This document shows positions 18,735 through 51,545 of a DNA stretch of 64,000 bases, in pieces; position 1 is the stretch's first letter, and every line of letters begins with the position of its first letter. A program made the position numbers and the translations under genes. The stretch is from Octopus vulgaris (Eukaryota), in NCBI GenBank assembly GCA_951406725.2, contig OX597814.1, positions 17,856,001-17,920,000 on the forward strand, given 5' to 3'. The notes under the pieces are model-generated. The model was not told where the DNA came from. It searched no databases and worked only from the letters and a program-made list of their open reading frames with translations.

Positions 18735-19528
18735 GTCTCCGTTACGAGGTCCTTAAATTTGTGTATTTTCTCCCGGTTTTCCTTTTCAAACATGGACAGA
18801 GGTTCACTGTTAAAACTAGTTTCACCTGTGCCTCTGAGAACCTAATTCCGGGTTGCGGTCATCAGTACATTGGACAAACGAGTTTAACTTTGAGAAAGAG
18901 AATCACTCTGCATAAAGAGCAAGTCCGTTTCCCGCAATACAGACAAATTCCTCTCGGTGAACACATAGAAAAATGTGCAGGTAACATCAAATCAAATTTC
19001 ACAGCCTTCCCTTTCTACCAGTGCAAAGACACAAACTCTCAACTAGAACGCTTAAATAAAGAAACCTTTTTCATTGAAAAATACAAAACGCGTCTTAATA
19101 TGCACGCATAATCAACTTTTATATTTTTACATATTACATCACTGTACATAAATCCCCTATTAAAAAAGGTCTTTTTTAAAAATAACTGTCTCTTTTCTGT
19201 ACACATATTTATTCCTCACCCATTTACCGAAACCTGAACAGTTATCTCCTTTACACACAACAATAACAATAATAACAACCAATTACCTCCTTTTATCTGT
19301 CTACTTGCGAAGTCATTCACTCGTGAATGTCATTACACACAACATGGACCGAATTTCTTCTTAAGAAAAAATATATATTCATATAAATTAAACGTTATAT
19401 CATGAATAGCGATAGCGAAACCGGTCGATATATTAAAAATTATATTAAACCCATGTAAGTGTGCGTATTTTCTTATATACATTACAAGTCACCACGTGGG
19501 GACAACCGAAATTCCTCTTTTCTGTTAC
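18735..19528 (+). mobile_element. Penelope-like retroelement 3' relic with GIY-YIG endonuclease remnant (ORF 18761-19111)
   Basis: FTCASENLI..GCGHQYIGQTSLTLRKRITLHK...EHIEKC...RLNKETFFIEKYKTRLN shows the YIGQT-R-R-H, E and LN hallmarks of PLE GIY-YIG domains; 3' region homologous to 51170-51545; ends at (TA)n. Confidence 0.85.
19396..19432 (+). ncRNA. Minimal type I hammerhead-like motif with variant core AUGAAUA (A3-U8)
   Basis: TATATC ATGAATA GC-GATA-GC GAAA CCGG TC GATATA: 6-bp stem I, 2-bp stem II with tetraloop, palindromic stem III ACCGGT, GUC triplet at 19424-19426. Confidence 0.65.
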
Positions 19529-19642
<114 letters not shown>

Positions 19643-39885: not shown

Positions 39886-40287
39886 CGTGTGTTCTTTTCA
39901 ATCATATTTTTAATAAGAAATTGAGGTACGTTGTCCACGAATTGTTTAGTTTAACTTTCTTCAAAATGATGGATTCAGCATAGACTATTTATTTCCCTCA
40001 TACATATCTTTTAATCCAATATTTCCTCGCTATTATTTATAGATTTATCTACTTCGAGTTCAGCCGTTAAAAACGAGTTATATTTATTTTTCTCAACTGG
40101 TTAATCAGTATGTTTCCCTTCAAATTCTCTCTTATTTTCATTCACTCTCTCTCTCTCTCTCTCTTTACCTCACTATTAAATTTTCCAAGAGTCTCGTTTT
40201 CCTTCACTTTGTTTTTTTTTATATTTATTTGTTGTTATTGTTGCTTTGTTTACATACCTATTTTTTTTTCTGTCTGTCTCTCGCTAG

Positions 40288-40871
40288 GTTCAGATATTGA
40301 TGATGACGTCGATCTGGATAGCAGTTTAGACAACACAGGCAACGTATCAGACAGAGATTTCAGCATGGATGGAGACAACAGTCGGGATAGTAAAGAAAAT
40401 GTCGGTCCGCCTTGCCTAGGTAATAACAGTATTATGAACAATACCTGCAACACTAACAGCAATTCGTCGATGGCGCCCAATTCCGTTTCGTCCAACATTG
40501 GCAGCCCAGACGATGTGAAAGACGATACAATTATTAACTTTTCAAACAGTGTTGATAGTCTTTCAAATTCGGGGACATTACCCATAAACAAAAATAACAA
40601 CAGCAATGCTAATGGGACCACGAACATTATTACTAATAACATCACGAACAAAAACAATAACACAGTCAAGGACAACAGCAAAGACTCTACGAACATTTCA
40701 GCAGATCACTCCGAAAGCAACATGGGTGCTAAACGACGGGGACCACGTACGACCATCAAAGCGAAACAATTAGAAACACTAAAAGCGGCTTTCGCTGCCA
40801 CCCCTAAGCCAACACGGCATATAAGGGAACAACTGGCACAAGAAACGGGGTTGAACATGCGTGTTATTCAG
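40288..40871 (+). CDS. Lhx1/5: Internal coding exon of a LIM-homeobox gene of the Lhx1/5 (Lim1) family: acidic/Asn-rich linker plus homeodomain residues 1-46
   Basis: Translation ends [49 protein letters not shown], the Lhx1/5 homeodomain as I recall it. Polypyrimidine tract and acceptor ...tctcgctag (AG 40286-40287, phase 1). Donor CAG|GTGAGG at 40872, the usual LIM-HD intron position just before VWFQN. 584 nt, no stops. Confidence 0.95.
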
Positions 40872-42885
40872 GTGAGGAACCTTTTTATATTAAACATGTA
40901 TTGGCAATATTTCTGTATTTTAGGTTCGACCAAGAAACAAAGTTTGCTTCTGTAAGTGTGAACAAAACATTGTCGAGTAAATCGACTCATTTGGTATATT
41001 ACAGGTATTTTTATATGATGTGTGTCATGAAAAGGAACAGAGTTTAGATTGTGATTAATTTTAAATCTCATGACGGGATAAAACTACAAGATTTGCCTAC
41101 ACCCATACCTCTACACCTGCCAGAATAAAGCTATGAGAATAAAGCCACGAGTAAATTTTAAGTTTGTTGGTGAATTGGTACAATTGTCAGTCCCTGGGAG
41201 AAAAATGGCTGGCGACATTTTGTTCCAGTTTTTACATTCTGAGTTCAAATCTAGTCAGAGTGAGCTTTGCATTTTGAGATAGATAAAACGAAGTACCAGC
41301 TACATGCTAAGGTCGGTGATGGTAGTGACTAATCCTCTTGCTTCAAAATTACTGGATTCCTGTAGTTCAGTAAAAAAACAAAAAAAAAACAACAGTAAAT
41401 AATTGTTCCAAATTTCGTTACAGTGCTAGTAATTTTGGAGGAGTGAGAGTCAATTACATCAGGTCTAATCCTTGACTGTTGCTTTATTTTATCAACCTCG
41501 ATGGGATGAAAGACAAAGTTGACCTCGGCGGGGTTTGAATTCATGAGTCGGAAGAAATGCCACTAGATAATGATCTTAACAATATCGTGCGACTTCAAAC
41601 TGAGCCACGGTTCACTTTACTTGCTTTTCATCGTCCATAGAGTACCAAACTCGTGCTGGAATAATTTCAGTTATATACAGTACTTACTACTTCTTCTTGG
41701 TCATTTTGGTTAAGTTAGAAAATCAGGAACCTTGCATTACTTTACGTACTGAGCTAAATTTTCTTTCTAGTATAAACTCTGAGCTGTATTCATCCAGGGT
41801 CGATAAGATAGGAAATACTGAATTACGCTTACTTGTTACATATTATATGTACACTAGGGATATTAGATGAAGAATATGTCTGATGTTAGAACTCAAAATT
41901 CAAATCATAGAGAGAGAAAGAAAACAAATATAAAAGTTATATATTTAAGTGTTCAATCAACTCTGCCAACTCACTAAGATTATAGACGTAAGTATTAAGT
42001 ATTTGTGGTGATATGTACAGAGTTTTTAAGAGCAAAATACACTATATTATATGCGGTATTCATGATGATACGTGCTTAACAAATATTACATCCTCAAACT
42101 CCTAAATACGGTCTTGTTTCAGTTCAAATCTACTAAGAGTCGATTAATATTTCATAATTTTGGAGCTTCCAAATGTTATGTGTCAATACAGTATCAATTT
42201 TGTGTCAAACATCCAATTCCAGAAGTTTTCGAAAAATAAGAGTTTCATGCTTTAACACACCCGCACAAATACATACATACATGGACTTCAGTACGTGTTA
42301 TTGTATATTATATATATATGTCTGAATATAAATGTGTACGCAAGCACACAAACACTCTCATACAAATATATATATATACAAAACATAATAAACATAAGTA
42401 CGTATAAAGACATGGCTACTTAAATTTTATGTACTTGCAGATAACTACGGAGCTATATGTATAAATGCCTAAATAATACACACAAAGTTTGATATATAAA
42501 CGGGCGTATATACACACCCATTTGTATTTATAAATGTATGCATGTATGTAGCTTCGGTGTGTTTCGGTTTGGCCAGTAGCATGTATTTGAGTAACACAAA
42601 GACAAACGTATCAAACACCATACAAAATTAATTCTTGATTTATTCAAATTATCCCGCATCAGTCGAGACTAACATCATATGAGAAGGGGAGAAAATCTCG
42701 AAAATAAGCATTTATCCAAAACTGACATGCCATTAAAAAAATAGGACGGGCTTATTGCCAGGGGGATAAGAGAATAAGTGGGGAGTTCTGTTTCTACCTT
42801 GATAGGCGTTCTCAAGTAAGTATGCTCGCGTTTGTGCGCGCACGCGTGAATATGTGTATGTGTAAATCTATGTGTGTGTACACTC

Positions 42886-50581: not shown

Positions 50582-51545
<964 letters not shown>

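Follow-up and report, generated by a model that had tools for sequence, protein, structure and literature searches.

The window, a stretch of 64,000 nucleotides of Octopus vulgaris DNA, contains a hammerhead motif of a Penelope-like element (PLE) in which the tertiary pair between bases 3 and 8 reads A3-U8 in place of C3-G8. In hammerheads, the general acid owes its positioning to this pair. Judged by comparison of the genomic copies, A3-U8 is the state of the family to which the motif belongs rather than a product of decay. We consider it probable that the A3-U8 motif is a slow self-cleaving ribozyme, which would cut after C19426 upon dimer pairing through ACCGGU, probably with help from a protein. 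More tentatively, and with somewhat less than an even chance, it may be the first natural, catalytically active hammerhead with a purine at position 3 and a pyrimidine at position 8 on the scale of a family, in a Penelope clade that flipped the pair repeatedly (U-A, A-U and U•G), perhaps owing to a fold propped by the element's protein.

The motif and its host element

All parts of the motif lie on the + strand. The 5′ strand of stem I, TATATC (19396–19401), is followed by the core ATGAATA (19402–19408), read as A3-U4-G5-A6-A7-U8-A9 with A3 at 19402 and U8 at 19407, and by stem II, GC-GATA-GC (19409–19416), which has 2 bp (GC/GC) and a 4-nt loop and is placed by sequence. Positions 19417–19426 hold G12-A13-A14-A15.1 (GAAA, 19417–19420), the palindrome ACCGGT (19420–19425), which is the predicted intermolecular helix III, and the GUC triplet. 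The 3′ strand of stem I, GATATA (19427–19432), closes the motif, and both strands of this stem are placed by sequence and covariation. From hammerhead numbering, position 19426 is C17, the predicted site of cleavage. Checked letter by letter, every piece at 19396–19432 reads as in the original prediction, and the distance of 285 nt from the stop of the GIY-YIG ORF (the TAA ends at 19111) was likewise correct.

U4-G5-A6, A9, G12-A13-A14, A15.1-U16.1 and the NUH triplet are all present, and bases 3 and 8 are able to form a Watson-Crick pair (A-U). The literal core C3-U4-G5-A6-N7-G8-A9 is absent, A3 and U8 being found family-wide, and the unpaired base between 9 and 10.1 is absent as well, G10.1 following directly after A9. 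The pattern ATGANTA-N6-12-GAAACCRGTC has two matches in the window (the 19396 and 51445 sites) and none in 100 shuffles. An Rfam search of 19340–19480 gave no hammerhead even at E 10, as anticipated for a core that CUGANGA and Rfam searches would miss; for the whole window, the 150 of 513 Rfam matches listed were microsatellite-driven miRNA matches only. No alternative letter was found at 19402 or 19407 in aligned contigs at least 80% alike from four runs with three organism codes, one run of which may be the source of the genome. On the 3′ side of the motif, GTAAGT (19453–19465, donor at about 19456) looks like a 5′ splice site, for which a search up to the ORF start gave no clear acceptor and the aligned contigs of the four runs gave no spliced joint.

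The window copy runs from 18774 to about 19530, is 5′-truncated and has a single motif. It comprises the 3′ end of a PLE ORF with the GIY-YIG endonuclease (18774–19111, + strand, stop at 19109–19111; blastn 89% to L091 from 18774) and a 3′ pseudo-LTR with tail and a (TA)n microsatellite at its end (19112–19530, + strand), which is common to relatives and where the blastn match to L135 ends at 19530. The ORF fragment is 86% identical to residues 521–635 of the protein P0001 (tblastn); the fragment alone gave no Pfam match. The proposed Penelope linkage is confirmed by P0001, which is open over 635 aa with matches to RVT_1 (E 1e-6) and GIY-YIG (E 2e-6) and shows the single ORF with RT and C-terminal GIY-YIG of EN+ Penelope-like elements. 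P0001 has a C-x4-C-xx-C linker before GIY-YIG, and the copies end in (TA)n. A Zn-finger-like CX2-5CxxC linker before GIY-YIG and a (TA)n insertion bias are given as traits of Neptune PLEs in the accessible text of PMC8557442; the linker also occurs in Nematis. By its linker and (TA)n traits, the element is a putative Neptune-type PLE. When the window's own genome (2.8 Gb) was searched at the DNA level, 1,994 candidates were obtained, with 86–91% identity in the 40 that were scored, and the closest named eukaryotic protein relatives are those of bivalves, at about 45%.

The motif lies downstream of the stop in some copies and upstream of the ORF start in others; its occurrence on either side of the ORF, if in different copies, makes it a component of the pseudo-LTR. 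Of 30 loci that contain the ORF start, at least 7 (L135, L136, L137, L139, L142, L150 and L151) have the motif at a distance of about 145 nt before a conserved ATG. The AUG of the core was considered as the ORF start and ruled out, as copies with a 5′ end have this separate conserved ATG past the cut site. Inverted copies also occur (L098 and L099). The window copy itself, a truncated relic with one motif, is probably inert in place, selection having acted on master elements. Near the end of its tail it carries the palindrome CCACGTGG (19491–19500), a near-copy of which stands just before the start codon in L135; these two palindromes could pair and may mark the start of reverse transcription. 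Elsewhere in the window, an exon at 40071–40955 has a homeodomain match (PF00046, E 4e-11), which probably places the relics within or close to a homeobox gene.

The second relic in the window is older (50737–51511, + strand) and consists of an endonuclease fragment with frameshifts and a pseudo-LTR (blastn 70% to L101; tblastn 64% to P0001). It contains a decayed hammerhead copy at 51445–51476 (+ strand). The ATGATTA core and the different stem I that had been described here were found, the latter of 3 bp, with TGTC/GACA in its subfamily; that description fell short in that decay goes beyond stem I, the palindrome now reading ACCAGT and stem II being lost (ATGAAACGC). Because the copy is decayed, the site is weak as stand-alone evidence.

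A3-U8 across the genome

A3-U8 adjoining GAAACCGGTC gave 1,163 exact genomic matches (control 27), and all 3/8 states with a stem II ending in GC gave 2,355, copy counts behind which stand few independent events. Matches with A3 and a base 8 other than U adjoining the same sequence numbered 139 (control 35), many of which were misaligned in register or belong to the U3•G8 family, and those with U8 and a base 3 other than A numbered 800 (control 86). About 96 of the 100 listed among these 800 had the appearance of a C3-U8 family; this was rejected, the sequences being antisense to the RT coding region of a LINE and devoid of the stems. The LINE in question (L102:2150-4150, G000:C1) is young, with copies 97–99% identical and a nearly open RT frame, and its antisense, by mimicking a hammerhead core, constitutes a false-positive trap for motif searches.

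A core-blind sample, anchored only upstream and on GAAACC with positions 3-9 ignored, had A3 in 97 and U8 in 94 of the 100 sequences listed (of 710 matches, read by eye), and neither a change of both bases nor C3-G8 in any of them. Variation at 3 and 8 in this sample is similar to that at neighbouring core positions, which is consistent with decay after insertion. In script tallies, the window's family had A3-U8 at 32 of 33 sites (a 34th row was without core coverage) and a second, older family had it at all 33 (35 rows minus 2 duplicates), both sets having been collected by similarity across 300–550 nt, the motif included; for 30 anchored copies the tally was 28, counting one with a deletion in stem II. 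The protein of the second A3-U8 family is 47–54% identical to P0001. Across these A3-U8 lineages, about 50% identical in protein, U4, G5, A6, A9, G12-A14 and the NUH triplet are invariant. The expectation that AUGANUA would prove to be the consensus therefore held, the family state being AUGAWUA and not CUGANGA.

Stem I was expected to covary, and three of its five pairs are indeed altered on both sides, with a score of 0.286 against at most 0.119 in slid controls for 7 hand-picked A3-U8 representatives, changes that amount to a few events and not to independent samples. The pair count was limited to these 7 because automatic cross-family alignments mis-registered the U3 families. Among 124 fetched A3-U8 sites, stem I occurs as ATATC/GATAT, GTATC/GATAC, TGTC/GACA and GAGTC/GACTC. 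Pair 2.3/1.3 is A-U in 63 and G-C in 42 of these sites, pair 2.4/1.4 is U-A in 95 and A-U in 15, and pair 2.5/1.5 is A-U in 51 and G-C in 18, with A·A in 38, where stem I is incomplete in the oldest subfamily. Between the main A3-U8 lineages the flanks turn over, with the core remaining fixed; clustering by flanks divided old copies too finely, and the subfamilies were taken from the sequence listing. Stem II (2 bp GC/GC, with G10.1-C11.1) is invariant and thus offers no covariation support. In older families (e.g. L043:1494-1531), stem II reads GCGAAGC or GCGAAAGC, which we take to be unusually stable mini-hairpins of single-stranded DNA.

The double-hammerhead dimer is the predicted MFE structure in 5 of the 7 other A3-U8 copies folded, L038 and L268 preferring other folds. 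For the window copy, the double hammerhead is predicted at -17.5 kcal/mol versus -21.2 for a misfold, which is favoured by a private change and by the UCAUGA palindrome that A3 creates. All main A3-U8 subfamilies have TCATGA, and the AUG formed by A3-U4-G5 precedes the cut as well as the ORF start. Both observations would fit a selection of A3 for a second function, either as an upstream AUG that dampens translation until cleavage or as a TCATGA site in DNA or RNA, with U8 following to keep the core pair. We regard this as very improbable, considering that the ORF has its own conserved start some 145 nt downstream, that the short uORFs vary in length and frame among subfamilies, that further ATGs are found upstream on both sides of the cut, and that the U3 families manage without AUG or TCATGA.

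The 3-8 pair in related families

Covariation at 3/8, as predicted, was found between families, with A-U, U-A, U•G and C-G states. U3-A8 is the state of a sister family (55–63% protein identity), within which a U3•G8 subgroup is nested; a further family is U3•G8, and in an outgroup family U3-A8 goes together with a longer and bulged stem I. Searches for U3 with G8 or C8 gave 315 matches (control 24), almost all U3•G8 among the matches listed. Canonical C3-G8 hammerheads of type I occur in retrozyme-like tandem repeats of about 360 bp (L073-L079, G000:C1:20002278-20004542); these have the same ACCGGT palindrome as the PLE motifs, so that heterodimers are conceivable. Among the families found, none with multiple copies has an unpairable 3/8 state, and U3-U8 occurs in one old single copy (L163/L310).

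In the protein tree, the second A3-U8 family joins the U3 families (99/98), and a single clade of all A3-U8 copies and P0003 was rejected (p-AU 0.017) in a test that involved old, frameshifted copies and in which P0003 was included after an earlier tree had been seen. Since the two A3-U8 lineages are not one clade and the outgroup has U3-A8, either A3-U8 was gained twice, or a gain was followed by a reversal, or pLTR modules were exchanged. These results are relevant to the possibility that a single AT-biased decay by drift in a master element was subsequently copied, the 3-8 complementarity being coincidental. Such an origin would accord with the AT-rich genome, with copy numbers that go back to few masters and with the U3-U8 copy, but we consider it improbable, as the states of all multi-copy families are pairable, A3-U8 is found in two lineages outside a single clade, covariation in stem I accompanies turnover of the flanks, and the apparent C3-U8 family proved to be LINE antisense. 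The proposal that the shared double change preserves a 3-8 pair, and so represents a natural core variant, is instead supported by the family-wide A3-U8, the compensatory changes in stem I and the pairable relatives.

Several relatives depart from the hammerhead outside the 3-8 pair. Some U3-A8/U3•G8 subgroups (L039, L031, L044, L047, L049 and L051) are without base 1.1 and have U2.1 unpaired, yet were amplified. A U3•G8 PLE family (L300-L309, L315-L316; e.g. L300:3546-3583) has GC-AAT-GC as stem II, and its likely stem I strand is separated from C17 by three extra bases; from its sequence, it may be a variant that is broken or has a shifted cleavage site. The L235-L262 repeats (e.g. L242), about 60 of 100 listed matches, have TTGAAGA, 4 nt replacing stem II and the same GAAACCGGTC, and one copy weakly matches PLE protein (E 2e-4); this family resembles a minizyme. 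In scans for outgroups from other species, metagenomes gave 2 distant loci, of which L295, the one inspected, is without the motif, and genome contigs gave none; the pattern scan of viral contigs gave 0 matches.

Catalysis and comparison with known hammerheads

In a slow dimer ribozyme, as we favour it, the two pseudo-LTR motifs of a more-than-unit master transcript would pair through ACCGGU and the A3-U8 tertiary pair would form in the active fold. Cleavage after C17 would be slow and probably aided by the element's protein, and would trim the precursor RNA at a point some 145 nt before the ORF begins. Counting against catalysis are the 2-bp stem II, the missing 9/10.1 base typical of PLE motifs, the broken stem I junction in amplified sisters (part of the U3-A8 family and two U3•G8 groups) and the 4-nt loop II in another. 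The motif could alternatively be a hammerhead-derived fold with negligible catalysis, kept as a signal for RNA dimerisation or protein binding (stem I, GAAA and ACCGGU). That GAAACCGGTC is common to all families, despite the broken stem I junction or loop II in amplified sisters, would suit such a signal, whereas the fixation of U4, G5, A6, A9, G12-A14 and the NUH triplet across lineages about 50% identical would not, and we know of no role of the 3/8 pair outside the catalytic fold. In the available sections of Frangieh et al. 2024 (PMC11167929), mutants of the Anolis PLE hammerhead are unaffected in insertion in vitro, for which cleavage is thus dispensable. A scan that covered all double mutants of a type III hammerhead (PMC9901934), in its accessible part, describes only the G3-C8 swap as rescued and other doubles in the region as low, which by implication includes A3-U8; the same wording leaves the natural U3-A8 unrescued too. 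Taken together, we judge retention as a mere dimerisation or binding signal to be rather unlikely.

The persistence of A3-U8 across about 50% protein divergence, together with the compensatory stem changes, provides evolutionary evidence that the 3-8 geometry is more important than the identity of the two bases. It bears on whether the weak Penelope hammerheads act in vivo, as a dispensable motif should lose its tertiary pair when both bases undergo transversion. Assays could draw on the A-U, U-A and U•G sister families as a natural series. Search descriptors should permit NUGANNA with 3-8 pairing and, if the more tentative reading given at the outset is true, Penelope elements listed as hammerhead-free may have such cores that CUGANGA searches overlook.

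Lünse, Weinberg and Breaker reportedly described in 2017 small PLE hammerheads with a reduced helix III that cleave as dimers, in a large collection that may contain A3-U8 variants. The octopus motif shares their reduced helix III, its own dimer being a prediction. Przybilski and Hammann are said to have found in 2007 that any Watson-Crick 3-8 pair was active in two type III ribozymes, one of which preferred Y3-R8, and engineered A3-U8 was reportedly cleavage-competent in a context-dependent manner. Full-text searches of literature other than these two studies found no natural A3-U8 swap.

The published natural swaps that we found, in the accessible parts of PMC3088659 and PMC4209133, keep a pyrimidine at position 3. 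Natural U3-A8 hammerheads are described by Perreault et al. 2011 (PMC3088659), who call a 2-bp stem II common. The octopus motif resembles these in its natural compensatory 3-8 change and differs in having purine 3/pyrimidine 8 at family scale, the available text naming only U3-A8. The PAc hammerhead of Anolis Poseidon requires 3-8 pairing and cleaves only with protein, according to the available sections of Frangieh et al. 2024 (PMC11167929). It is likewise a pLTR hammerhead near the ORF start, with a genomic tail beyond the cut site and AT-rich insertion, but belongs to a different PLE clade, has the canonical C3-G8 and contains the ORF start inside the motif, while the octopus ORF begins about 145 nt downstream of the cut.

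There is also a close resemblance to the metazoan PLE minimal hammerheads of Cervera and De la Peña 2014 (PMC4209133), which, in the accessible portions of that study, show no activity as monomers and low activity as dimers. Like these, the octopus motif is of type I, is located in the pLTR and has a short stem I and a small palindromic helix III, with a putative G10.1-C11.1 pair, a predicted dimer, mostly single copies at truncated elements and 3/8 covariation. Unlike these, it has a 2-bp stem II, no extra 9/10.1 base, and A3-U8 instead of C3-G8 or U3-A8; their Fig. S3, as available, shows 56 motifs, not one of which starts with A3. The same portions report a U3-A8 variant in the Cercyon elements of Schistosoma mansoni and 3/8 covariation as known. 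As covariation at 3/8 in Penelope hammerheads was thus already known in the form of U3-A8, it is the purine-3/pyrimidine-8 orientation alone that is new in the octopus family.
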